Assembly: GCA_965203175.1 (NCBI GenBank) | Contig: OZ241867.1 | Coordinates: forward strand, 5,728,001-5,792,000 | Direction of reading: 5' to 3' | Source: Candidatus Latescibacterota bacterium | Lineage (GTDB): Bacteria > Latescibacterota > UBA2968 > UBA8231 | Length of the DNA stretch: 64,000 bases | Part shown: positions 3,135 through 14,323 of the stretch, piece after piece | Position numbering within the stretch: the first letter of the stretch is position 1 | Layout: every line of letters begins with the position of its first letter | Notes under the pieces: generated by a model | Database searches by the model: none | What the model was told of the DNA's origin: nothing | The model's input: only the letters and a program-made list of their open reading frames with translations | Position numbers and translations under genes: made by a program

Positions 3135-5197
3135 CGCGTCTCCCTTTCCCTGAGCAACAAGTGCTGGTCGGCCTCAATATCCCGATACACATCGACCTGC
3201 CCACTGGGCCACGCCACCTTAATGCGATCAGCCCGCACCCGTTGCCCCAAACCAAATTCCAACTCCAAGCTGTTGCTGTTGCCAAAGCTGTATCCAGAAG
3301 CTACCTCTTGGTACTGCATCAAGTCGCCGGCATACACCCATACTTTGGCACCGATTCCGTCGCGATTGCTCTCGACCCCTTCCAACTCCAGCACCAAGTA
3401 GTGATTGCCAAAGCCCTCGCTGCGGTAGAACGCATTGGGCCACTGGTCGCCCGGCTGAGCGCCGCCCACTGGCGCATAGAGGTCGAGATCGCCGTCGCGG
3501 TCGTAGTCGGCAAAGGTCACGCCGTGCGATTTGCCCAAGTGCCCCAGCCCGGCGGCTACCGTCGCATCGACAAAGGTGCCATCGCCCCGATTGCGGAAAA
3601 GCACATCCGGCTCGCGCCGGCCCATCTGCGGCCCGCCGTTGCCGAGGTAGATATCTACCCAGCCATCGTTATCCACATCGCCGGGAACGCCGCTCATCGT
3701 GCCCAGCGCTCGCTCTAGCCCGGCAGCTTCCGTCACATCGGCAAAGGTGCCGTCGCCCTTGTTGCGAAAAAGCACCGGCCGGTCGCGCTCGCTCGTCGAT
3801 TTTCCCGCGACTCGATCGGCCAGCACCACCAGGTACTGGCTCCAGTTGCCCACGAAGATGTCCAGCGCACCGTCGTTGTCGTAATCGAGGACAAACGTTA
3901 TAAAGCCATCGATGTACTCGGCACCTACACCGGCCGCTTCCGTCTGATCCGCGAACGCACTGCCACTTCGATTGCGATAGAGCACATTCGGCTCGGTAAA
4001 ATTGCACACGTACAGATCAGGCCAGCCATCTCCGTCAAAGTCGCCCCACGCCGTGCTTAACGCCTGCCCCTTGTGCGCCACCCCGGCGGCTTCCGCCACA
4101 TCGGCAAAGGTGCCATTGCCACGATTGCGATAGAGCACATTGGTCGAGTCGCCAGTCGCGCCCGTGCCATTGGCCACGTAGATGTCGAGGTATCCATCGC
4201 GATCGAAATCGCTCCACGCCGCGCAAAAGCTCGATCCCGGATCGCCCGTACCCGACACTTCCGTCGCATCGGCGAAGACGCCCCGGCCGTCGTTTTGGAA
4301 GAGCGCATTCACGCCGCCGCCAAACCACCCATCGCGCGTCACGTACACATCGGCGTCCCCGTCGTTGTCGTAGTCAGCCGTCTGCACCCCGATCCCGCCC
4401 TCGGGTAGTACCAATTCAGCGGCCTGCGTCCGCTCGGCAAAACGCGCGCCGTCGTTGCGGAAGTACGCCAGTGCTGGATGGCCGATGACGATCAAGTCGA
4501 GATCTCCGTCCTCGTCGTAGTCGGCCCAAGCGCTAGCGCGACCTCCGTCGAATTTATCGACTCCCACCTCGGCCCCGATCTCGCTAAACCGCCCGCTGAT
4601 GGTTCCCTGCGGCACGGCATCGGCAAATTCCCCGGTCGCCGACCGCCCCAATGCCTCCTGCAACCACTTCCGGTGCCAGCGCAACTCCAGCGGCTCGGGA
4701 TGCAACGCCACGGCCTGTTGCAAGATCGAATCGGCGTGGGCGTAATCCTCCTGCCACAGCGCGGCAACCGCCGTCCAGTAGAGCGATTCATATCCCTCGG
4801 GATCGGCGGCCAGCGCCCGCTGCAAATACTTTTCCGCCTGCGCGAACTGCCCCTCTTCCAGCGCCTCTTTCCCCCGACCCAAAAACGTCTCCAACACCAA
4901 AGACCGCGCCGCCGTTAATTCAGGGTCCAGGCTCGCCGCCTGTTCCAGCAACCCCACGCCTTCTTCTATCCGCCCCTGCACGAGCCGCACCCTCCCTAGC
5001 TGCCAGTAGCCCTCGGCGGCCTCGGGTTCCAGCCGAACGCAATGCGCAAAAGCGCGTTCGGCCGCCCTGAGCCGATAGCGCTCCAGCAAGTCCAAGCCCT
5101 GGTAGTACGACTGGAGAAACGCCTCTGAGCGGCCAGTCGGCTCTTGGCAACCGCTTAGGACGAGGAGAGAAAGGGTAATGACTAGAGAAACTCTCAT
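3131..5197 (-). CDS. Lipoprotein with N-terminal TPRs and an FG-GAP/ASPIC-UnbV (CRTAC1-like) domain
   Basis: Start re-set to MRVSLVITLSLLVLSGC (lipobox). Repeated DYDNDGDxD / FRNxGDGTFAD motifs; C-terminal SNRDGIGAKV...LEFGLG...WPSG. Confidence 0.9.
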   Translation of the reverse strand: MRVSLVITLSLLVLSGCQEPTGRSEAFLQSYYQGLDLLERYRLRAAERAFAHCVRLEPEAAEGYWQLGRVRLVQGRIEEGVGLLEQAASLDPELTAARSLVLETFLGRGKEALEEGQFAQAEKYLQRALAADPEGYESLYWTAVAALWQEDYAHADSILQQAVALHPEPLELRWHRKWLQEALGRSATGEFADAVPQGTISGRFSEIGAEVGVDKFDGGRASAWADYDEDGDLDLIVIGHPALAYFRNDGARFAERTQAAELVLPEGGIGVQTADYDNDGDADVYVTRDGWFGGGVNALFQNDGRGVFADATEVSGTGDPGSSFCAAWSDFDRDGYLDIYVANGTGATGDSTNVLYRNRGNGTFADVAEAAGVAHKGQALSTAWGDFDGDGWPDLYVCNFTEPNVLYRNRSGSAFADQTEAAGVGAEYIDGFITFVLDYDNDGALDIFVGNWSQYLVVLADRVAGKSTSERDRPVLFRNKGDGTFADVTEAAGLERALGTMSGVPGDVDNDGWVDIYLGNGGPQMGRREPDVLFRNRGDGTFVDATVAAGLGHLGKSHGVTFADYDRDGDLDLYAPVGGAQPGDQWPNAFYRSEGFGNHYLVLELEGVESNRDGIGAKVWVYAGDLMQYQEVASGYSFGNSNSLELEFGLGQRVRADRIKVAWPSGQVDVYRDIEADQHLLLRERETR

Positions 5198-5294
5198 AGC
5201 AGAAACAACATCCGCCGTCTTTTGCCTGCTGTCAATTTCTAGTACGTTGTTACGTCTCTTTTGACATCTTTCACCAATAAAAGGAGCACCCATA

Positions 5295-6407
5295 ATGAAA
5301 TGGACCCTCTTCTTCGTCGCTTTCCTCTGGACGGCTTCGCATAGCACGGCCGAAGACCGCCCCACCCTCGTACTCGACGGCCAAGCAGCCATGCTAGTCG
5401 TCGATTTAGGCGGCGGCTCCATTTCCGACTTCCACCTCAAAAGCAATCCGCTCAACCCCTTGCAATGGGATTCTTGGTCTTTCGGCGACACCCCCAACCA
5501 AGCGCCGCCCATAGAGCCGCGCTCCATGGGGCACTTCCTCTGCCTCGACCGCTGGGGGCCGGCCACCAAAGCCGAGCAGGCCCACGGCATGGGCTGGCAC
5601 GGCGAGGCCACGCGCGTGTGGTGGACCGTAGATGAGGACGTCCGCGCAGAAGACGGTCACCTCATGGCCCAAATGTCGGCCGAACTGCCCCTGGCCAGCC
5701 TCAAGGTAGTGCGCTCGATTCGCATGGCTCAGGATCAGGCCATCTTTGCAGTCGCCGAGGCCGTCACCAACACCCGCCATTTGGGACGCGTGTACAACAT
5801 CGTCCAGCACCCAACCATTGGTCCACCCTTTTTGGACGAGAGCACCCGCGTTGATGCCAACGGCACGCGCGGCTTTATGCAGGAAACGCCCATGCCAACG
5901 CCCGAGAACCCGGAGGTGAGCTGGCCCTCCGCACTCAAAAAAGACGGCACCGAGGTCGATATTCGCCATTTGACGGATGACGCCTCTCCAGCGGTCGTCT
6001 CGTACATAATCGAGGAAGAATACGGTTGGACCACAGCCATCAACGCCAGCAAAGGACTCCTTATTGGCTACATCTGGCCGGAGGAGGAATACCCTTGGTT
6101 CGACGCTTGGCGGCACGTCCGCGACGGCAAGCCCTTTGCCCGCGGCTTGGAGTTTGGCACTACGGGCCTGCACCAACCTAGCCCGGTGTTGTTGGAAAAG
6201 GGCCAGATTTTCGGCCGCTATCTCTTTCACTATATCGATGCCGACGAGACCCAGGTTTTCACCTACGCCAATTTTCTCATGGAGATTCCCTCCGACTTCG
6301 CCGGCGTTTCTGATGTCGAATACTCCGAGGGGCAGCTAGTGGTGCGCGAGGACGGCGGTCAGGGCCGAGAGCTGACGATGGAGGCGGGAGAACTTTTTGC
6401 GTGGTGA
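5295..6407 (+). CDS. Secreted galactose-mutarotase/aldose-1-epimerase-fold protein
   Basis: AAGGAG RBS at 5281-5286; signal peptide; GWHGEA, VQHPT and RGLEFG motifs in the order expected for the mutarotase His/His/Glu residues. Confidence 0.55.
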   Translation: MKWTLFFVAFLWTASHSTAEDRPTLVLDGQAAMLVVDLGGGSISDFHLKSNPLNPLQWDSWSFGDTPNQAPPIEPRSMGHFLCLDRWGPATKAEQAHGMGWHGEATRVWWTVDEDVRAEDGHLMAQMSAELPLASLKVVRSIRMAQDQAIFAVAEAVTNTRHLGRVYNIVQHPTIGPPFLDESTRVDANGTRGFMQETPMPTPENPEVSWPSALKKDGTEVDIRHLTDDASPAVVSYIIEEEYGWTTAINASKGLLIGYIWPEEEYPWFDAWRHVRDGKPFARGLEFGTTGLHQPSPVLLEKGQIFGRYLFHYIDADETQVFTYANFLMEIPSDFAGVSDVEYSEGQLVVREDGGQGRELTMEAGELFAW

Positions 6408-6563
6408 AGAGATAAGAGGGATAGGTTATAACTGATCCGCTAACTTTGGCCGTTGATGCCCTGAAGCAACCGATGGAGAGTAGGAAAGAGTGAGGACTGT
6501 GGGCCCGAAGTAATTCTCAAACTGAAGGATCGGCCCCGCGTCGAAAGTTCGCAGCCTCTCAGC

Positions 6564-7397
6564 CTACCCTTCCTCCCGCGCCACCTTCCCCTTGACGACC
6601 CACTCGGCCAGCGCCGGCCACAGGGCGTGGACCATCGCCAGCAGCCTGAGCCGCCTCGGAACGTAGAGCTGCTGGCGCCGCTTCAGCATCCCGCGCACAA
6701 TCGCCCGCGCCGCCTTCTCCAAGCTCACCGCTCCCGCCCGGTGTTTGCGCGATGCATCGCCCAACGCCTTCCCGTCTTTTCCCAGAGCACGTTGCCGCAA
6801 CTCCGTCCCCTTGAGCCAGTGCAAGAGCACGGTCATCACCCCCACCCCACTCTCGGCCACCTCCATCCGCAAAGCATCGCAAAACCCCTGTAGCGCGTGT
6901 TTGGACGCCGAGTACCCTGTGTGCAGCGGCACCCCCACCTGCCCCTGAATGGACGAAATAGCCACGAATAGCCCCTTGCTTTTTTTCAGATGCGGCAGCG
7001 CCGGATGCGCGCAATGCACGGCCCCCAAGTAATTCACCTCCATCAGCTTGCGGAATAATGCTACATCCTCGATCGCGGCAAACGCGGTCCACATGCTGAC
7101 GCCAGCGTTGGCGACCAAGTAATCTATGTGCCCAAAGCGCTCGATCGCGGCCTCCACCAGCCGCTTGCCATCCTCGGCTATGGCGACATCCCCAACGACA
7201 GTCAGCACCTCGCTCCCCAACTGCTCGCACTCTTGGGCGACGGCCTCCAACCGCTCGGCATTCCGCGCTAAGAGAACCAGCCGCGCTCCCTGCTGGGCGC
7301 ACTCCACCGCCAGCGTCGCGCCCAAGCCCGCAGAAGCACCAGTGATAACAACGGTCTTATTGCTCAGGCTTCCGGCGCGCACTCCCAAAAATCCCAT
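6564..7397 (-). CDS. Short-chain dehydrogenase/reductase, DHRS7B-like
   Basis: TGASAGLG, LVANAG, ISSIQG, YSASK (YxxxK). Start at ATG 7397 (MGFLGVRAGSLSNKTVVITG) is inferred. Confidence 0.9.
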   Translation of the reverse strand: MGFLGVRAGSLSNKTVVITGASAGLGATLAVECAQQGARLVLLARNAERLEAVAQECEQLGSEVLTVVGDVAIAEDGKRLVEAAIERFGHIDYLVANAGVSMWTAFAAIEDVALFRKLMEVNYLGAVHCAHPALPHLKKSKGLFVAISSIQGQVGVPLHTGYSASKHALQGFCDALRMEVAESGVGVMTVLLHWLKGTELRQRALGKDGKALGDASRKHRAGAVSLEKAARAIVRGMLKRRQQLYVPRRLRLLAMVHALWPALAEWVVKGKVAREEG

Positions 7398-7506
7398 TCT
7401 GAATGCCGAAAATATTCTGGGGATCCAGCGCTTCTTTAGTCTTGCGCAGGACCTCGATGCTGTTGTCGCTCTGGATGTGCTGGACAAAGCTCTGCCGAAT
7501 TTTGCC
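7334..7506. repeat. 173-bp direct repeat, copy 1
   Basis: Matches 8449-8621 with 4 substitutions. Contains the 3' end of the FAD oxidase gene and the 5' end of the SDR gene. Confidence 0.97.
7357..7506 (-). pseudogene. Duplicated 3' fragment of the alkyl-DHAP-synthase-like gene
   Basis: Encodes GKIRQSFVQHIQSDNSIEVLRKTKEALDPQNIFGIQNGIFGSARRKPEQ* with no matching upstream coding sequence. Confidence 0.85.
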
Positions 7507-8448
7507 GGCCCTATGGGTGAAGGGACAGCTCCTGGGCCGCTGCGTATGTCAGCCGCGCCAGCTCGGCCGGCGATTCACCCCGGCGAGGAGTGGCCACCTC
7601 GAAGGTCCAGAAACCGCGGTAGCCGACCTCTCGCAGGGCCTCGCGGATCGCCTCCCAGTCGAGGTCCCCCTGCAGCGGGGCCCAGTGGTTGTCCTGCGGG
7701 TCCTCGCCGTCGACGTCCTGCAGATGGGTTCCCCACAGGCGCTCGCCCGCGGCCCTGATTTCCCCGCCCGGGTCGTTCCCCGCGGTCCAGGCGTGGCCGG
7801 TGTCGACCACCAGCCCCACCGCCTCCTCCGGGTAGTCGTCGACGAGGCCGCGCAGCTCCGTCATGGTCAGGAACGGGTAGTGGGAGCGGTAGGGCAGGTT
7901 TTCCAGCAGAATTCGCACCCCCGACTCGAGCGCCACCGGCACCAGGTCGTCGAGGGAGCGCCGCGCCGCCCCGGACATGATCCCGGTCAGCTCCGGGCGT
8001 TCCGGATCCTCGACGAACCGCGGGTTCGGCACCGGGTGGATGACCATGCCGCCGGCGCCGAGGGCGCCCGACATGCGCAGGTACTCCCCGAGCAGGGCGG
8101 CCTTCTCCCGCCGCCAGTCCTCCTCCGGGGCACCGAGCACGTTGCGCATCATCGGCGCGTGCACGGTGCCGGTGCGCAGATCGGACCCCTCGATCCGCGA
8201 CCGCAGCTGCTCGAGCTCCCGGCTCGTGAAGATCCGTTCGAGGTGGCCCTCCTGCGAGGAAAGCTCGATGTGGGAATACCCGGCGGCGGCGATCTCATCG
8301 AGGGCCTCATCGAGCGGGTCCTTGAATCCTGCGGTGGCGTAGCTGATTTGCATTGGTCCGGTCCTCCTAAGGGAATCGGTTGATCGGTAACTTGATGGAC
8401 AGCCCGGGCCCGGCGAGGGCCGCAGACCCGTGGGGCGTTTTCACAACA
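7507..8448. mobile_element. 942-bp higher-GC single-gene insertion between 173-bp direct repeats (no recombinase)
   Basis: Bounded exactly by the two repeat copies; by eye more G/C-rich at third codon positions than the flanks. Confidence 0.7.
7511..8353 (-). CDS. Sugar phosphate isomerase/epimerase (xylose-isomerase-like TIM barrel, AP_endonuc_2)
   Basis: AGGAGG RBS; motifs IEL, VHAP, VIHP, ILLENLP, VDTGHA, THLQD, HWAPLQGDLDW, TFEV. Confidence 0.88.
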   Translation of the reverse strand: MQISYATAGFKDPLDEALDEIAAAGYSHIELSSQEGHLERIFTSRELEQLRSRIEGSDLRTGTVHAPMMRNVLGAPEEDWRREKAALLGEYLRMSGALGAGGMVIHPVPNPRFVEDPERPELTGIMSGAARRSLDDLVPVALESGVRILLENLPYRSHYPFLTMTELRGLVDDYPEEAVGLVVDTGHAWTAGNDPGGEIRAAGERLWGTHLQDVDGEDPQDNHWAPLQGDLDWEAIREALREVGYRGFWTFEVATPRRGESPAELARLTYAAAQELSLHP

Positions 8449-8512
8449 AAGCACCGGTGATAACGACGGTCTTATTGCTCAGGCTTCCGGCACGCACTCC
8501 CAAAAATCCCAT
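8441..8512 (-). pseudogene. Truncated duplicate of the SDR 5' end
   Basis: Reads MGFLGVRAGSLSNKTVVITGALL*; the frame stops just after the repeat/insert junction. Confidence 0.8.
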
Positions 8513-8621
8513 TCTGAATGCCGAAAATATTCTGGGGATCCAGCGCCTCTTTAGTCTTGCGCAGGACCTCGATGCTGTTGTCGCTCTGGATGTGCTGGAC
8601 AAAGCTCTGCCGAATTTTGCC
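8449..8621. repeat. 173-bp direct repeat, copy 2
   Basis: Matches 7334-7506 with 4 substitutions. Confidence 0.97.
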
Positions 8622-10313
8622 TACCCCGTGGTGGTGGGATAGCGAGCCGCCGTTGTCCAAGATCGTCTGCCGCAGCGCGTGCTCAATGTCGTGATAGACC
8701 TCAATGGGATGCTCCAATCCCCGCCCAGAAAATCCCATCGTAAAGTAGATGCACACCCCCGTGTGGTACGTCTGCGTCACCCGGTACGACAGGTAGGGCC
8801 GCCCGGCGACGCCGCGCGCGCTACACTGCGCGGTCAACTCCGCTTGTACGGCCTGCGTCACGTCGTGGATGCGACTCCAAGGCACAGAGGTCTCAAAGGT
8901 TTCGCCTAAAAAATCGAACTGGTTCAAAAAGTCGCGTATATAGGCGATCCCAAAGGTCGCCATGTAGCCGCGCCGGCCGTTGGTAGCGCCGGCGCTCTTG
9001 CCACCGTGGGCCTTGGCCAGCTTGAAGATCGTCCGCTTCTGGTGCGCGACCTCGGCATGGGTTCCCTCCATGGCGATCGTACACGCCGCCATTTTTAGCG
9101 GATCAAATCCCAACACCTTCAACAAGGCGAACTTCTGCACCTTTTCCTTGAGGTGTTTCAAGGGAGAGGGCGCAGCCTTGAGGGCCTGGCCGAAGCGAAA
9201 TTCTTGGTTGTTGACCAAGCGGATACTCGCCGGCAAGGTCCCGGTCTGGCGCAATGCCTGCAAGTACTCCACGCCTTGGGCGAAGGACTTGAACACCAAC
9301 GAGCCGTATTCGCGCACTTCTGGTAGGGGATGGATCTTGAGCACGGCCTTGGTGATGATGCCGAGGTTGCCCTCTGAGCCAAAAAGCAGCCCGCGCGGCT
9401 GGATGCCAGTCGAGTTGCGCGGCGTGGTGTGCAAGGTCTCCACCGCTCCGGTCGGCGTCACCAAGGTCGCTTCGAGGACGATATCTTCGATATTGCCGTA
9501 GCGGTTTTTCTTCATGCCGCTGGCATTGGTGGCGATCCAGCCGCCCAAGGTCGAAAGCTCAATGCTGTCGGGATCGTGGCCGACGGTGTAGCCCCGAGCG
9601 GCGAGTTCTCGCTCCAGCTCCTTGCCCGAAATCCCCGCTTCGATGCAAGCTTGGAGGTTGTCCTCGTCGAGATCGACAATTCGGTTCATGCGCCGCATAT
9701 CGACCGAGGCGAAAACGCGATCGTCGTCAGTGGGCAGGGCCAGCGCACCGCTGACGTTGGTGCCACCACCGTAGGGCACGAGGCAGACATTGTGCTCGGA
9801 AGCGAGGCGCACGATGGCGCGCACGTGATCTCCGCTTTCTGGATAAATCACCAGATCGATCACTCGCTCCAAGGCGTCGCCGTAGAGCAAGCGATAAACC
9901 TCATCGACGCTGAGCTGGCCGTGACTGTGGATCAGGCGCTCCTCGTCGTCGAGCGAAACCCGCTCTGCGCCGAGCTCGTCTTGCCAAGCGGCGACGAGGC
10001 TTGCGTCTGCCCGCGAGGGCGGTACCTCGTGGCTCTCTTTTTCGACGGCCATCTCGTCGGGGTCAATCGGAACCTGGAGCATTTCTTCGACAAAGGGGAT
10101 GAAATGCGGCATGGTGAAGCCGGCCAGCGGATAGCGGCTGCCGGTCACCCGCACGGTCTTCGGCCCATCGAACTCAAAGCGGGTGTCCGTGTAGCCCCAT
10201 TTGTGCGGATGGCGCTCTCCGTCGGAGAGATCGTAGCACGCATCGGCCGCGGCTTGGCGGACAATGGCCGCGGCAACGGCGAAGACGGCGACGGCGAGGA
10301 CGACTTCGAGCAT
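8472..10313 (-). CDS. FAD-linked oxidase, alkyl-dihydroxyacetonephosphate synthase (AGPS/ADAS)-like
   Basis: KWGYTDTRF...TGSRYPLAG, HSHG, PYGGGTNV, GHDPDSIELSTLGGWIATNASGMKKNRYGNIED, GSEGNLG, PASIRL, ETFETSVPW, VTQTY, GGSLSHHHGVGK; hydrophobic N-terminal anchor. Confidence 0.88.
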   Translation of the reverse strand: MLEVVLAVAVFAVAAAIVRQAAADACYDLSDGERHPHKWGYTDTRFEFDGPKTVRVTGSRYPLAGFTMPHFIPFVEEMLQVPIDPDEMAVEKESHEVPPSRADASLVAAWQDELGAERVSLDDEERLIHSHGQLSVDEVYRLLYGDALERVIDLVIYPESGDHVRAIVRLASEHNVCLVPYGGGTNVSGALALPTDDDRVFASVDMRRMNRIVDLDEDNLQACIEAGISGKELERELAARGYTVGHDPDSIELSTLGGWIATNASGMKKNRYGNIEDIVLEATLVTPTGAVETLHTTPRNSTGIQPRGLLFGSEGNLGIITKAVLKIHPLPEVREYGSLVFKSFAQGVEYLQALRQTGTLPASIRLVNNQEFRFGQALKAAPSPLKHLKEKVQKFALLKVLGFDPLKMAACTIAMEGTHAEVAHQKRTIFKLAKAHGGKSAGATNGRRGYMATFGIAYIRDFLNQFDFLGETFETSVPWSRIHDVTQAVQAELTAQCSARGVAGRPYLSYRVTQTYHTGVCIYFTMGFSGRGLEHPIEVYHDIEHALRQTILDNGGSLSHHHGVGKIRQSFVQHIQSDNSIEVLRKTKEALDPQNIFGIQNGIFGSACRKPEQ

Positions 10314-10352
10314 AGCTCAATCTCCTAGCACTAATTAAGTGATCAGTAGCTA

Positions 10353-11405
10353 CTACAGCCCCTCCTGCACGTCCTTTTTCCGCACCTTCCATATAAATGC
10401 GTCGTAGTAGTAGTGGATCAGGGCAAAGGAACTGAGCAGCGAATAGCTGAAGAGGTCGAAATTGGTGTTGAAGCCAACGAGGCCAAAGCCAAAGTCGCGC
10501 ACCAAGCCCTCGCTCAGCGCGTGAAAGACGACGGCATAGGCTGCGCACAGCAGGAGAAAGAACTTGACGCCCCCCTTGCCCGCCACGTAGCGCATGAGGG
10601 CCGAGTCGCCGCCCGTGCGCTCGACCTTGTGGCGGTTGTAGAAATACACCATGACGATGTACTGGATCCCGTGCATGATCCGGTGCGCCACCGCAAAGAC
10701 GAGCAGATAGGCCGTGGTAAAACTAGTGAAGTACCACAGAAAATAGCTCGACAATAGAAAGGCGTATTTGAGGGGATTGAGCGCGTAGCCGCGCCAGGCG
10801 CAATAGGCAATGTGTCCCACGTAAACCAGGCCGTAGGCAATGGCAATAGTCCACGAGACTAGGTGTACCGTCGTCACCGCTTCCGCGCTGATGGGCAGGT
10901 GCCACTCGTGCAACATGCGCACCCAGACCGTAGAAAAAAGCGGCGACACCACGAGCATGTTGCCAAAGAAGATCCAATTGAAGGCCAAGTCGAACTTGGC
11001 AGTCGCGGGCGTGCCGGCCTTGGCCTTGAAGTCGTACACGCGCGCAAAGCCGTATTGCTGCATCAAACTGTGCTGGTGATCCCACAAAGTCACGATCAAC
11101 ACCAAGCTCAACGGTGCCCACTGGATCAGGCCGTAGGCAAAGGCGACCAATACTATCGGCCCGAGAATGAACCGCTCCTTGAAGCGGGCGAATTCCGCCG
11201 GCGAGCCATAGACGCGCAACCAAGTGACGAAGTGGTGCGGAATGGTTACCCACAAGGCAATGGCCGCCAGCGCCGCCCCCGGCAGGTAGTGCCCCGACAC
11301 TAACGCAAAGCAGACCGCGGCAAAGGGCAGGCTTACAAACCAGATATAGTCCTGCCGGCGATCGACAATATAGGCAGGTTGCAGAACGATGGAATTACTC
11401 GCCAT
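10353..11405 (-). CDS. Polytopic membrane protein with conserved-looking His motifs, function unknown
   Basis: Many hydrophobic segments; PHHFVTW, WDHQHSLMQQYG, AHRIMHGIQY, LIHYYYDAFIW. Confidence 0.75.
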   Translation of the reverse strand: MASNSIVLQPAYIVDRRQDYIWFVSLPFAAVCFALVSGHYLPGAALAAIALWVTIPHHFVTWLRVYGSPAEFARFKERFILGPIVLVAFAYGLIQWAPLSLVLIVTLWDHQHSLMQQYGFARVYDFKAKAGTPATAKFDLAFNWIFFGNMLVVSPLFSTVWVRMLHEWHLPISAEAVTTVHLVSWTIAIAYGLVYVGHIAYCAWRGYALNPLKYAFLLSSYFLWYFTSFTTAYLLVFAVAHRIMHGIQYIVMVYFYNRHKVERTGGDSALMRYVAGKGGVKFFLLLCAAYAVVFHALSEGLVRDFGFGLVGFNTNFDLFSYSLLSSFALIHYYYDAFIWKVRKKDVQEGL

Positions 11406-12960
11406 GAGAAGTCAGGGCTAGTGCCACAGCGTCTGGGCTGAAGCGGATTTCGTTGGCGCGGCGCTGGCGCAGAGACGCAGCCAGCTCCTTGACCGCAGCT
11501 TGGAGCTGCGCCGTCGCCCAATCCGCCTCGACCCGCTCGCGGATCTCGTCCAGCGGCGGCAGTCGATCCGGGCGGCGGCGCAATACCTGTAAGACAATAT
11601 AACCATTATCCGTGGCAAAGGGACCGTGAAAAGTCCCTTCGTCGGCGCGCAGAGCGCGGCTGACCGGATTGTCGCCCTCTAGCGCGCCGCTGCCGTAAAT
11701 CACGCTGACGAAACGATCCGCTAGCTCGGTCGTATCGCGACCGGCGCGCATCCGCTCGACAATGGCGGTGCCCTCGGCCTCGTCGCGGGCGAGGAGCCGG
11801 CGCACCTCCACCTCGGCCGGCGCGGTGTAACGGAGCTTGTGCTCCTCGTAAAACAGGCTCAGGCCGTTGGGATTGGGCGGTGGCACCTGCGCTTGCAGCG
11901 CGTCCTGCAAGCGCCGCGCAAGCTGCACCTGCCGCAGTCGCTCCAACTCGCGTTGCAGGTCCGGGTCGGCGGCGAGTGCGAGCCGCGTGGTTTCGAGCGG
12001 GACCAACACGCGCCGCCCGACCTCGCGCCGCAGCACCTTCTCGCTCGCGCCTTGGCCCTTTAGCAGTTCGCGGGCCCGCGCGACCGTTAGCACCCCGCCG
12101 TCGTACTCGGCCACGACGGCCTCTGGCGAACGGTCCGCCGCTAGCCCATCCAGCTCGTAGCGCACATTATAGCGCGCGTGCAGGGTGTCGTAATAAGCCA
12201 AGAGCTGCCGCCCGAGCTTTTCCCGCATCACCAAGCGCTGAATGGTCTCTCGCTCCTGCTCGAAACTAACCGGGTGCATGTCCGTGAGCTTGATGAGAAA
12301 GTACCCATCGGCCACCTGCATCGGCTCGGAGATCTCCCCGATCTGCATGGAGAAGGCCCTTTCGGTCAGGGCGGCGTGCGAGGCCATGGTATCGCCCCAG
12401 CGGTGATAGCCCATGTCGGCCTGACGCTCTAGAATCCGCGAATCCTGCGAGTGCCGCATCGACAGTTCCTCAAAGTCCGCTCCTTCGGCGAGTGCGGCCA
12501 AAATCTCCGGCAGTTGCTCTTGGTCGCGCACCATCAGCAGGCTGAAGCGCACGCGGCGGTTGTACGGGCTGCGCTGGAAATAGGCTCGCAGTTCCTCCTC
12601 GGCGACCTCGGGTTGGACGATCCCGGTGCGCTCGTACAAAGCCTGCTGCACCAGCCGCGCCTGCGCCTGCGCCTGCCACTGCAAAAACTCCGCGCTCTCG
12701 CCCAATCCCCGCCGCTCGGCTTCCTGCACGAGCAGCGTTTGCTCGACGATGGCTTCCAACAGTTTCTCAGCCCCGTATTCCACCCGCAATTCCGGTGCCA
12801 CTCGCGCGATGTAGTGGCGATAGTCCGCCACCCGAATCGCCATTTGCCCCACCTCCACCAAAACGGCATCCTCGGTGGCCATGGCCGGGCCGTCCTCAGC
12901 GCAGCCGATTAGGCCGAGCAACGCCGAGCAAAGTGCCATTCCCATCCAACGCTTACTCAT
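11395..12960 (-). CDS. PpiC/SurA/PrsA-like foldase lipoprotein
   Basis: Lipobox LIGC; EAERRGL SurA-N-like helix; GADFEELSMRHSQD...DMGY...GEISEP...GYFLIK parvulin domain plus a second degenerate one. Confidence 0.85.
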   Translation of the reverse strand: MSKRWMGMALCSALLGLIGCAEDGPAMATEDAVLVEVGQMAIRVADYRHYIARVAPELRVEYGAEKLLEAIVEQTLLVQEAERRGLGESAEFLQWQAQAQARLVQQALYERTGIVQPEVAEEELRAYFQRSPYNRRVRFSLLMVRDQEQLPEILAALAEGADFEELSMRHSQDSRILERQADMGYHRWGDTMASHAALTERAFSMQIGEISEPMQVADGYFLIKLTDMHPVSFEQERETIQRLVMREKLGRQLLAYYDTLHARYNVRYELDGLAADRSPEAVVAEYDGGVLTVARARELLKGQGASEKVLRREVGRRVLVPLETTRLALAADPDLQRELERLRQVQLARRLQDALQAQVPPPNPNGLSLFYEEHKLRYTAPAEVEVRRLLARDEAEGTAIVERMRAGRDTTELADRFVSVIYGSGALEGDNPVSRALRADEGTFHGPFATDNGYIVLQVLRRRPDRLPPLDEIRERVEADWATAQLQAAVKELAASLRQRRANEIRFSPDAVALALTSHGE

Positions 12961-14323
12961 GCTGCTCGCTCTCTTTCATCTGCTGGATCGCCGCTAGCTC
13001 CCGCTTGCTCTCTTCTACCTTTCCCAACTTCAAGTACGCCACAGCTAACTTCTGCCGCGCGTCGAGCCAGTCCGGCCGGGCCGCCACCACAATGGTCAGC
13101 ATCTCGGCAGCCTTGGCGTAATCACCGACGCGCGCGTGCAGCAGTCCCAAAAAGTAATGTGTCTCCACATCTTCCGGCGCTAAGCGGCGCGCCTCTGCGA
13201 GGCTAGCTAGGGCCTCGTCAAAGCGCTGCAAGCGCATGTACGCCTGACCTAGATTGTAGTGGGCATTGGCGTATTCTGAGTCCAAGGCCAGCGCGGCTTG
13301 ATACTCGACGACGGCCTCGGCGAGTTGGCCCAAGCGCAGGTAGAGGTTGCCTAGGTTGTTGCGGTAGCGCAAGCTGTCCGGCGCGAGCCGCACGGCCAGC
13401 CGATATGCTTCGGCCGCTTCAGTCAAGCGCCCCTGTTCTGTATACAGCAGGCCCAGTTGCGCCCGCGCCTCGTGGTCGTCGGGCGCATTGCCCAACATCC
13501 GCAGTTGGTCGTCGATTTTGTCGAGCTGCTGGTCGAGCTCCCGAAACTGCGTCAGCACTTCGGTGCTCTCTTCGCGGCGGCCGAGCCGCTTGAGGGCATT
13601 AGCCAGCGCGAAGTACGCCTCTTTGGACAAGGAGTCGAGCGCAATGGCGCGGCGAGCAGCGCGTTCAGCCGCCGCGTACTCGCGCCGCTTGAGTTCCACC
13701 TGCGCCAGATCGACGTACGCGGCCGCGGCCGTGCTGTCCAGCTCGACCGCGCGCGTCAGAGTCGCCGCAGCCCGCTCAAAGTCGAGTTCCTTCAGGCGCG
13801 TCCGGCCCAAGAGCCGGTAGAAGGAAGCATTGGTCGAGTCGCGGTCCAGGCCCGCTTGCAGCAGCGTCTCCACCTCGCCGTACTCACCGCGCAAGAAGTA
13901 GATGTAGCCGAGGTCGTAGTAGGTCGTCAGATGGCTGGGATCTAACGAGAGCACCCGGCGGTGTTCGTCAATAGCTTGGGCATAGTTGAGCTGTTTGACG
14001 TACATGGCCGCGAGGTTGTGCCGCGCTGATACGTGCGTCGAATCCAGCGTCAATACGCGCTGATAGGCCGCCATCGCGCTGGGGTAATCGAGCTGGCGCA
14101 CGTAGGCATTGCCGAGGTTGTAGTGAATCTTAGCGGATTTAGGTGCGAGTGCGGCGGCCTGTTTATAGGCGTCAATAGCTTCCGTGTGGCGGCCTTCGGA
14201 GGCGAGCGCAGTGCCGCGCGTAAAGAGCACTTCGGCGTCCATGGCTGCGCCAGGACGCACTTTTTCCTGCGGACTTTCCTCCGCACAGGCGTACAATGCG
14301 AGACAGATCAGCAGCACCTTCAT
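12953..14323 (-). CDS. TPR-repeat lipoprotein
   Basis: Start re-set to MKVLLICLALYAC (ATGA overlap); repeated HYNLGNAY / NNLGNLY TPRs. Confidence 0.9.
   Translation of the reverse strand: MKVLLICLALYACAEESPQEKVRPGAAMDAEVLFTRGTALASEGRHTEAIDAYKQAAALAPKSAKIHYNLGNAYVRQLDYPSAMAAYQRVLTLDSTHVSARHNLAAMYVKQLNYAQAIDEHRRVLSLDPSHLTTYYDLGYIYFLRGEYGEVETLLQAGLDRDSTNASFYRLLGRTRLKELDFERAAATLTRAVELDSTAAAAYVDLAQVELKRREYAAAERAARRAIALDSLSKEAYFALANALKRLGRREESTEVLTQFRELDQQLDKIDDQLRMLGNAPDDHEARAQLGLLYTEQGRLTEAAEAYRLAVRLAPDSLRYRNNLGNLYLRLGQLAEAVVEYQAALALDSEYANAHYNLGQAYMRLQRFDEALASLAEARRLAPEDVETHYFLGLLHARVGDYAKAAEMLTIVVAARPDWLDARQKLAVAYLKLGKVEESKRELAAIQQMKESEQHE

Follow-up and report, generated by a model that had tools for sequence, protein, structure and literature searches.

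A foreign isomerase-like gene between two overlapping genes of a Latescibacterota locus, with the overlap duplicated on both sides

A foreign gene is lodged between two genes that overlap in nearly all close relatives, and a direct repeat containing the overlap leaves both neighbours complete. We analysed this locus in a stretch of 64,000 nucleotides of Candidatus Latescibacterota DNA (the window) and compared it with related loci, one of which (L007) carries this gene at the identical position. In bacteria, neighbouring genes often overlap, and DNA inserted where they do so would be expected to disrupt one of the pair. Seen as an empty site and as two differently built filled sites, the locus shows an acquired gene slotted in with both neighbours intact. 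In L007, the redundant duplicate seems to have been whittled to little beyond the overlap. The features of the locus are as follows.

6564..7397, minus strand: SDR, an SDR family oxidoreductase gene, complete (adh_short, E 2.6e-50)
7334..7506, minus strand: R2, repeat copy on the SDR side, with a dead oxidase 3' fragment and the live SDR start
7507..7510, minus strand: four donor bases 3' of the ISO stop, adjoining R2
7511..8353, minus strand: ISO, encoding a 280-aa xylose-isomerase-like TIM-barrel protein (PF01261, E 1.7e-31)
8354..8393, minus strand: leader common to the window and L007, with AGGAGG at 8363-8368 (39/39 nt identical to L007 7799-7837)
8394..8448, minus strand: first 55 nt of the insert, GC-rich and missing from the L007 allele, which matches insert positions 56-942 only
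8449..8621, minus strand: R1, repeat copy on the oxidase side, with the oxidase 3' end (stop 8472-8474) and a dead SDR 5' fragment
8472..10313, minus strand: AGPS, an alkyl-DHAP-synthase homologue ("oxidase"), complete (Pfam FAD_binding_4 and FAD-oxidase_C)
10353..11405, minus strand: MEM, a 350-aa ORF with no family match

The repeat described in the initial annotation was reproduced in both its coordinates and its number of differences. The segments 7334-7506 and 8449-8621 form a direct repeat of 173 nt with four mismatches (7341/8456, 7350/8465, 7377/8492 and 7432/8547), and the longest mismatch-free blocks between the copies are 74 nt and 54 nt. Three of the four mismatches fall in the last 45 nt, a clustering with P ~0.06 by binomial reckoning. 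Their coding effects had likewise been read correctly: three are synonymous in the SDR frame, and 7432/8547 is a GAA/GAG difference in the AGPS frame. In addition, 7377/8492 exchanges Cys and Arg in the AGPS frame, an effect that had gone unrecorded. The 64-kb window contains no further long repeat of >90% identity; its 12 remaining repeat families are all domain repeats (60-81%) of paralogous FG-GAP/TPR genes.

Both neighbours are intact, as originally stated. The final 49 codons and stop of AGPS lie inside R1; of 14 other cluster members read, 9 share its C-terminus. The live SDR gene starts in R2 at ATG 7395-7397 (alternatively GTG 7380-7382) with an N-terminus that agrees with cluster members and is encoded identically by both repeat copies, MGFLGVRAGSLSNKTVVITGA. 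The dead SDR fragment of R1 terminates three codons inside the insert. The repeats thereby take in both the 3' end of AGPS and the 5' end of SDR, in the manner of attL/attR-like direct repeats that include a target gene end.

The insertion is genuine and varies between lineages, rather than being an assembly error. Comparison with relatives, which had been put forward as a check, showed the arrangement to be absent from most of them: in 21 of the 22 close loci holding both genes, AGPS and SDR share 41 nt and no insert separates them. These 21 loci have one copy of the contiguous target segment; the window and L007 have two, which flank the insert. Among the 61 fetched loci, L007 alone has ISO. 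It is an independently deposited 6.6-Mb chromosome record from a clade with dozens of chromosome-size genomes. An identical ISO protein sequence is present on eight contigs, the longest of which (6,633,482 bp) is distinct from the 6,579,469-bp contig of the window. At 90% the ISO cluster counts 73 members, and P0046, P0047, P0048 and P0052 belong to further clusters.

The two filled sites are not built alike, as judged from the two DNA alleles compared (window and L007). The window repeat measures 173 nt. That of L007 measures 67 nt, and there the insert has a leader 55 nt shorter and a tail 23 nt longer. The AGPS-side break falls at the same target base in both, whereas the other three boundaries differ. 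There is no microhomology at the deletion that corresponds to the 55-nt leader difference. At the SDR side, the window junction lies within the 4-nt word GGCA (7503-7506), which is common to the target and to the donor tail as retained in L007. A shared word of four nucleotides can arise by chance.

The insert (7507-8448, 942 nt) carries one ORF of 280 amino acids, in keeping with the single isomerase/epimerase-type gene with an AGGAGG that had been placed between the copies; the AGGAGG lies 9 nt upstream of the ISO ATG. ISO is a predicted member of the sugar-phosphate isomerase/epimerase superfamily on the basis of its match to PF01261 (110.2 bits against a gathering cut-off of 31.1, residues 18-261). 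It reached no NCBIfam equivalog, the best being CbiR (52.8 bits, cut-off 105), and its best PDB match is 3wqo (E 4e-10). Codon changes between the window and L007 (nine synonymous, two non-synonymous) indicate that ISO is under purifying selection. AGPS, ISO and SDR share one orientation and no terminator stands out, so ISO can probably ride on the transcript of the operon.

The insert, about 0.9 kb, is foreign, its source being a member of the same phylum with higher GC3. Its GC content is 0.70 versus 0.606 for the window. The GC3 comparison suggested in the initial annotation marks ISO as an outlier: its value is 0.900, compared with 0.756 on average (sd 0.041, maximum 0.846) in 30 further long ORFs of the window (z = 3.5), so the insert is foreign in composition. 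An ISO relative that is 86% identical (P0172) lies on a contig equal in size to that of L031; the AGPS genes of L031 and L035 have GC3 values of 0.945 and 0.949. The native place of the ISO relatives is behind a DHDPS-like gene in this GC3-rich lineage. In P0178, for example, a DHDPS-like ORF reads through into an ISO relative, and P0052, P0165 and P0181 run on into downstream sequence resembling neither AGPS nor SDR. A relative in the native context, P0046, is by eye near-identical to the window ISO over the last three quarters.

The first 55 nt of the insert may be a decayed remnant of the 3' end of a DHDPS-like gene that preceded ISO in the donor. Their translation (..GSAAL..LSIK) resembles by eye the C-termini of the DHDPS-like proteins P0171/P0174 (..GAAAL..LFIK, ending at the stop). 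The likeness is suggestive only, because tblastn matches of the stretch to the DHDPS-like gene are weak (E 0.1-1.8). Neither the window nor the loci hold a second ISO or DHDPS-like gene. The 95-nt leader and the insert have no other copies in the window and the 61 loci besides L007, and the candidate reading of the insert as a repeated element (REP/MITE) was rejected on this ground.

The insert is younger than its flanks, judging from sequence divergence between the two carriers. It is 98.6% identical between the window and L007 (12 differences in 887 nt) while the flanks are 93% identical (182 in 2637; Fisher P 3e-12). Third codon positions differ at 8/281 versus 191/1243 (P 3e-10). Part of the roughly five-fold lower divergence of the insert may not reflect age, since synonymous sites in ISO could evolve more slowly under strong GC3 bias. 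Immediately beside the insert, the two 250-nt flanking stretches are 95.6% and 92.8% identical between the window and L007. A 250-nt sliding comparison over the locus revealed no low-divergence tract adjoining the insert and no consistent nearest relative of the window, and located no flank donor or breakpoint. With no co-transferred flank visible, there is no support either for a spread by homologous recombination with long arms.

The gene trees of AGPS and SDR disagree; two of the 23 sequences are carriers. In the AGPS tree, L007 falls in a clade (99% SH-aLRT) with four empty-site genomes while the window lies outside, and the starred branches force two changes. The SDR tree is compatible with a single origin. 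The repeat copies do look like two alleles, as initially proposed, because three of their four mismatches are common population polymorphisms: they fall on polymorphic sites (17 of the 173 sites, in 21 relatives) and involve the same two bases, a coincidence expected from random placement with P ~0.0035. The argument first offered for this view, that synonymous differences imply alleles, is weaker than the conclusion, since part of the repeat in each copy is not under selection. Later allelic recombination would explain the allelic mismatches equally well, given the discordant trees.

No enzyme or structure that would mobilize the insert was identified in the regions scanned. The absence of transposase, integrase and terminal inverted repeats reported previously agrees with our scans: no transposase or integrase domain, including integron integrase, was found among 13 ORFs (176-23457), and the four inverted pairs in 5000-11000 all lie away from the insert ends. 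The ends are not structured (fold z 0.42, 0.26 and -0.35). No attC-like fold follows ISO, where 4 nt separate the stop from the repeat and 7385-7530 folds with z -0.35. There are no tRNA or tmRNA genes in the window and no Rfam matches in 4000-13000 (E ≤ 0.1). Promoter and terminator scans gave counts no higher than shuffles; a lone weak terminator-like site (8468-8452) sits at the R1/insert border.

The geometry of the locus is that of insertion-duplication. Our preferred account, which we hold to be reasonably probable, is recombinase-free illegitimate capture of the donor piece followed by trimming and allelic recombination; the mechanism is inferred. Several other explanations were weighed against it. 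The insert could be an artefact joining two strains and an unrelated high-GC organism, which would account for the allelic differences between the copies and for the foreign composition. This is very improbable: ISO occupies this site in L007 too, through different junctions, the identical protein recurs on eight contigs including a second chromosome-size contig, ISO shows purifying selection, and the insert ends and flanks share no long words to mislead an assembler. The chimeric assembly named in the initial annotation as a possible refutation does not apply. Least credible of all is a transposon or integron-type gene cassette. Direct repeats do flank a single gene with its own RBS in operon orientation, but such an origin is already contradicted by its own defining features. 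The target duplication (173 or 67 nt) is not of constant length and, as had been argued previously, is too long for a transposon; the ends are neither inverted nor folded, the space after the ISO stop is 4 nt, and the scanned ORFs include no transposase or integron integrase.

Two further explanations are somewhat less improbable. A small circle with ISO and its own copy of the overlap may have entered by one Campbell-type crossover with the chromosome, using RecA or a recombinase in trans; with a site-specific recombinase, the insert would represent a decayed element of the cis-mobilizable type, with gene ends included in its att sites. Empty sites have one target segment and filled sites have two, flanking the insert, exactly as insertion-duplication predicts, the copies bear different population alleles, and the insert is younger than its flanks in non-sister lineages. 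We nevertheless regard this route, which the initial annotation had adopted, as unlikely. Nothing shows a circle or a single crossover, and the L007 junctions were not predicted: a re-integrating circle would carry its junctions along, yet the repeat length and both insert ends differ. A 1.1-kb circle with one metabolic gene would have no replication, transfer or recombination function, no integrase is encoded among the 13 scanned ORFs, the initial joining of foreign DNA to 173 nt of target is left unexplained, and the allelic mismatches have another ready cause in allelic recombination. Alternatively, ISO may have resided in the ancestor of the close clade and been lost cleanly and repeatedly by recombination between the repeats. 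The patchy distribution (two carriers in 23 sequences), the SDR tree and the 74- and 54-nt identical blocks would allow this. It is improbable nonetheless, given the roughly five-fold lower divergence of the insert than of its flanks between carriers, the persisting GC3 outlier, the near-identity of P0046 in its native context (by eye, last three quarters) and the two changes forced by the AGPS tree. The existence of two alleles favours illegitimate capture and trimming over re-integration of one fixed circle, because the L007 junctions differ from those of the window.

Under illegitimate capture, a foreign piece would have been joined without a dedicated recombinase, by illegitimate joins with little or no homology, at two positions in the locus offset by 173 nt or more. 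This could have taken place in one step, if the piece bridged one copy of the locus and a second, located on a sister chromatid or on a homologous fragment entering the cell. It could also have taken two steps. The piece would insert into SDR just after ...GGTGCT, and SDR would then be restored from a relative's allele, with a homology anchor in SDR and an illegitimate join in the insert tail at the shared GGCA. Products that duplicate the overlap would be the sole ones to leave both genes whole, and these would have been retained. The allele may later have been transmitted or re-acquired between lineages. Redundant parts would be lost by deletion, leaving little beyond the overlap in L007, and ordinary allelic recombination would place different population alleles in the two copies. 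Exact removal of the insert by recombination between copies could follow; such precise loss, the reversibility proposed at the outset, is plausible because of the identical blocks. The data establish neither one origin nor two: a single origin would require three independent trims, one of them beginning precisely at the junction, and two origins would require a hot spot.

Parallels to this locus exist among known systems. Insertion-duplication mutagenesis with suicide vectors is a single-crossover (Campbell-type) integration that directly duplicates one contiguous target segment. As here, the duplicated segment flanks the insert and the event is reversible by recombination between copies; both genes stay whole, the segment covering the 3' end of one and the 5' start of the other. 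In contrast, the present case is a natural allele with no vector, circle or selectable marker evident, and with two alleles that differ in duplication length and insert ends. Transposon target-site duplications, typically 2-14 bp, are also direct repeats of target sequence flanking inserted DNA, but the repeat here is ten to a hundred times longer, varies between alleles, and lacks transposase and inverted ends.

In homology-facilitated illegitimate recombination, one end of the foreign DNA is integrated by homologous recombination while the other is joined illegitimately (PMC3240628). The present locus would resemble it in having one junction in a 4-nt shared word, with the donor tail known from L007, and an SDR-side copy of a different allele; as described, that process replaces or deletes recipient DNA, whereas here DNA was duplicated and the anchor step is conjectural. 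In transformation-triggered merodiploidy of Streptococcus pneumoniae, exogenous DNA bridges sister chromatids to yield a tandem duplication, and selection retains an intact copy of the gene that the cassette would otherwise destroy (PMC3784515). Those duplications span 100-900 kb with IS-derived repeat borders, compared with 67-173 nt and presumed illegitimate joins here. Some integrative elements target a gene end and restore the gene, and their decayed forms (CIME) lack recombination genes (PMC5704250), as does this insert. It departs from a CIME in having no integrase in cis or nearby (scanned ORFs), variable att boundaries (three of four differ between the window and L007), a cargo of one metabolic gene and no sign of excision. 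Our literature search found no described case of a foreign gene between overlapping genes with the overlap duplicated, which is not proof of absence.

More speculatively, and with rather little likelihood, the insert and repeat may be a minimal recombinase-free mobile unit. It would consist of one gene with a "healing patch" copying the target-gene overlap, would enter and leave one operon junction via host recombination with its neighbours unharmed, and its mode would be recurrent in the clade (L015, L019). In both of these loci, a further insert has a duplicated gene start at its border.

The host genes are of interest in their own right. The 8472..10313 product is assigned as an AGPS homologue by its full-length similarity to a solved alkyl-DHAP synthase, PDB 4bby (E 2.4e-148, residues 37-601); it also matches 2uuu (E 1.6e-85). 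SDR scores 294.5 bits against NCBIfam PRK06181 (cut-off 215). The 350-aa ORF is probably a membrane protein, as its sequence is hydrophobic by eye, and is the first gene of a conserved MEM-AGPS-SDR row. In 25 loci (all 23 close loci, L021 and L025), an ORF 83-100% identical to it precedes the oxidase gene. This row is a candidate bacterial ether-lipid pathway.

A 173-nt direct repeat with four mismatches (7341/8456, 7350/8465, 7377/8492 and 7432/8547) is present at window positions 7334-7506 and 8449-8621. It encloses a 942-nt insert with a GC content of 0.70, compared with 0.606 for the window. The structure is an insertion-duplication at a gene overlap, a geometry equal to that of Campbell-type insertion-duplication. 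The genes of the row are as follows, in order of transcription:

10353-11405, reverse strand: probable membrane ORF (350 aa), without a family match; membrane call made from sequence
8472-10313, reverse strand: FAD-linked oxidase (613 aa), full-length alkyl-dihydroxyacetonephosphate synthase homologue (PDB 4bby, E 2.4e-148)
7511-8353, reverse strand: ISO, xylose-isomerase-like TIM-barrel protein (280 aa; PF01261, E 1.7e-31)
6564-7397, reverse strand: SDR, assigned by family matches

Repeat positions are numbered t1-t173 along the direction of transcription. With the SDR ATG at t110 and the oxidase stop codon at t148-150, 41 nt belong to both genes. The oxidase-side copy of the repeat (R1, 8449-8621) completes the oxidase and continues into a dead SDR fragment that ends three codons inside the insert; the SDR-side copy (R2, 7334-7506) supplies the live start of SDR, along with a dead oxidase tail. 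Each neighbor is therefore complete, and their termini agree with those of cluster relatives. The repeat, its higher-GC insert and the intact overlapping genes described in the initial annotation are confirmed. ISO has its own AGGAGG motif 9 nt ahead of the ATG, and no curated equivalog was reached for it. No second repeat of a similar kind was found in the 64-kb window, where the remaining 12 repeat families are domain repeats (60-81% identical) inside paralogous FG-GAP/TPR genes.

Species-representative genomes were scanned with an oxidase alignment, yielding 61 loci. Close loci were defined as those with an oxidase at least 91% identical (n = 23); 22 of these hold both oxidase and SDR, and the other (L020) is cut by a contig end. 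The probable membrane ORF precedes the oxidase in each of the 23 close loci and in L021 and L025, and SDR follows the oxidase in 22 of the 22 close loci that extend to it. Judged by homology, the row at 6564-11405 resembles a bacterial ether-lipid (alkyl-DHAP) pathway, and its SDR could be the acyl/alkyl-DHAP reductase.

This comparison with related genomes, a check the initial annotation had recommended, demonstrates that empty and filled sites coexist and that there are two forms of the junctions. In 21 of 22 close loci the two genes overlap directly, without an insert. The exception is L007, a 6.6-Mb chromosome record with ISO between the two genes; ISO was found in none of the fetched flanks of the other 38 loci (0/38). 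An identical ISO protein occurs on eight contigs (longest 6,633,482 bp), and the oxidase and SDR of the window on a contig of 6,579,469 bp. Chimeric assembly cannot account for one gene recurring at one site in independent records of chromosome size, which, from their contig sizes, are probably long-read assemblies. Two ORFs from other strains, P0044 (398 aa) and P0037 (131 aa), start mid-oxidase and, after a frameshift and a gap of about 230 residues, continue in the SDR frame; this reflects either a large internal deletion in the AGPS-like gene of some strains or an assembly indel. Among distant relatives, oxidase and SDR do not overlap in L043, L047, L048, L049, L050, L052 and L057 (spacers of 76-668 nt), and the spacers of L047, L048, L052 and L057 contain a repeated element with a common translated motif.

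The L007 repeat is shorter, spanning 67 nt (t106-t172; L007 7732-7798 and 8709-8775) with two mismatches. Its oxidase-side break and that of the window both follow the same target base (...GGTGCT), but L007 does not have the first 55 nt of the window insert (8394-8448); beyond these, the two inserts agree over 887 nt at 98.65% identity. On the SDR side, L007 retains 23 nt more past the shared ...TAGGGCC. R2 begins with the same four bases (GGCA) as this extra stretch, so the SDR-side junction of the window lies within a 4-nt word that donor tail and target share. The L007 repeat resumes 4 nt upstream of the SDR ATG, close to the minimum duplication required. An 8-nt palindrome is located at t162-169 of R1, 3 nt ahead of the shared oxidase-side break, and is imperfect in R2 and L007. 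It is part of a weak terminator-like site (8452-8468, reverse strand), a kind of site no more numerous than in shuffled sequences.

As had been proposed, the insert is foreign: the GC3 of ISO is 0.900, compared with a mean of 0.756 for 30 other long ORFs of the window (sd 0.041, maximum 0.846; z = 3.5). The ISO family is widespread (338 matches). The 90% cluster of the window protein has 73 members, and the next clusters are at 93, 90 and 86% identity. P0172, from the 86% cluster, is encoded on a 7,053,161-bp contig, the same size as the contig of L031, a distant relative from the same phylum whose oxidase is 68% identical; oxidase GC3 is 0.945 in L031 and 0.949 in L035. A 500-aa protein, P0178, reads through from a DHDPS-like ORF (P0174; weak Pfam DHDPS match) into an ISO relative, indicating that ISO lies behind a DHDPS-like gene in the lineages of those relatives. 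The translated extra 55 nt of the window have only a faint likeness to the DHDPS-like C-terminus. When compared by eye, the downstream sequence into which the frameshifted ORFs P0052, P0165 and P0181 continue did not match any of the three repeat frames. By our own comparison, P0046 is near-identical to the window ISO across its last three quarters; it and the DHDPS-like fragment P0171 are both on 1,547-bp contigs. ISO alleles are mosaic among the clusters P0001, P0002, P0046 and P0048: in P0046 the N-terminal 70 residues are of the 86%-cluster type and the remainder of window type, and P0002 shows the reverse at the C-terminus. Inserted and native-context alleles thus seem to recombine.

The insert is younger than its surroundings. 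Window and L007 differ at 12 of 887 nt in the insert and 182 of 2637 nt in the flanks (P 3e-12). At third codon positions, 8 of 281 differ in ISO compared with 191 of 1243 in the three neighbors (P 3e-10), although a strong GC3 bias could hold back synonymous substitution in ISO. With nine synonymous and two non-synonymous codon changes, ISO is under purifying selection. No co-transferred flank is visible, given that the 250 nt adjoining the insert on each side are 95.6% and 92.8% identical between window and L007. In the oxidase tree, L007 forms a clade with four empty-site genomes (99% SH-aLRT) that excludes the window; its starred branches require two changes on this tree. SDR gives an unresolved tree, which conflicts with the oxidase tree at other points as well, as would be expected under frequent recombination.

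In a set of 21 relatives, 66 of the 173 repeat sites are variable, and at 17 the polymorphism is common (minor allele seen five times or more). Three of the four differences between R1 and R2 (t130, t157, t166) coincide with sites of this group of 17 and involve the same pair of bases (P ~0.0035), R2 carrying the minor allele each time; the remaining one, t75, is synonymous and private to R1. This makes the copies allelic, in line with the initial annotation. It does not by itself prove crossover with a circle, since the same picture would result if one copy or the other had later been replaced by the allele of a relative. The earlier reading, of recombinase-free insertion by a single-crossover circle or homology-assisted capture, was partly right and wrong in no essential point; its circle is unproven. 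No signs of a recombinase were found: there are no inverted repeats at the insert ends and no transposase or integrase domains in the 13 ORFs scanned (176-23457). Likewise, no structured insert ends, RNA family or tRNA were found by folding the ends, searching Rfam over 4000-13000 and searching the window for tRNAs.

The most likely origin is an illegitimate joining of a foreign fragment to the locus at two staggered points. This may have been a single event in which the fragment bridged two copies of the locus. Alternatively, the fragment may have inserted after ...GGTGCT, with SDR then restored from the allele of a relative by an exchange anchored in SDR and ending at GGCA in the insert tail. 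The two-step route would account for the shared oxidase-side break, the differing SDR-side junctions and the allelic R2, but does not explain why the 55-nt difference starts exactly at the oxidase-side junction. Both genes would be kept only in products with the overlap duplicated; redundant parts may have been trimmed afterwards by deletion, and the differences between copies would result from allelic recombination. R1 and R2 share identical blocks of 74 and 54 nt, long enough for RecA-dependent exchange. Recombination between them could delete the insert exactly, and the proposed reversibility holds in principle.

One window junction resembles homology-facilitated illegitimate recombination, but as outlined in PMC3240628 that process replaces recipient DNA, whereas the window locus duplicates it. 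Integration of exogenous DNA between chromatids, with an intact gene copy preserved, is documented at the 100-900-kb scale (PMC3784515). Decayed integrative elements retain att repeats that include a gene end (PMC5704250); in contrast, the boundaries of the ISO insert are not constant.

The stretch after SDR is hypervariable among close relatives (window ~6407-6564 and its counterparts in L001-L024 and L059), with identity to the window falling to 0.5-0.6. The DUF4432 gene is 0.2-4.2 kb from SDR or absent, with DUF499-like, ATPase and DUF4276 genes in its place. In L015, a perfect 70-nt direct repeat (11397-11466 and 12857-12926) surrounds another insert whose borders duplicate a gene end; the corresponding L019 repeat (9792-9858 and 11243-11308) is 89.6% identical over 67 nt. 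The repeat equals the opening 70 nt of a DUF499-like gene (~925 aa) and encloses an AAA-ATPase gene, together with an internally deleted DUF4276 remnant in L015. This arrangement may instead represent tandem stacking of two variant defence-like modules.
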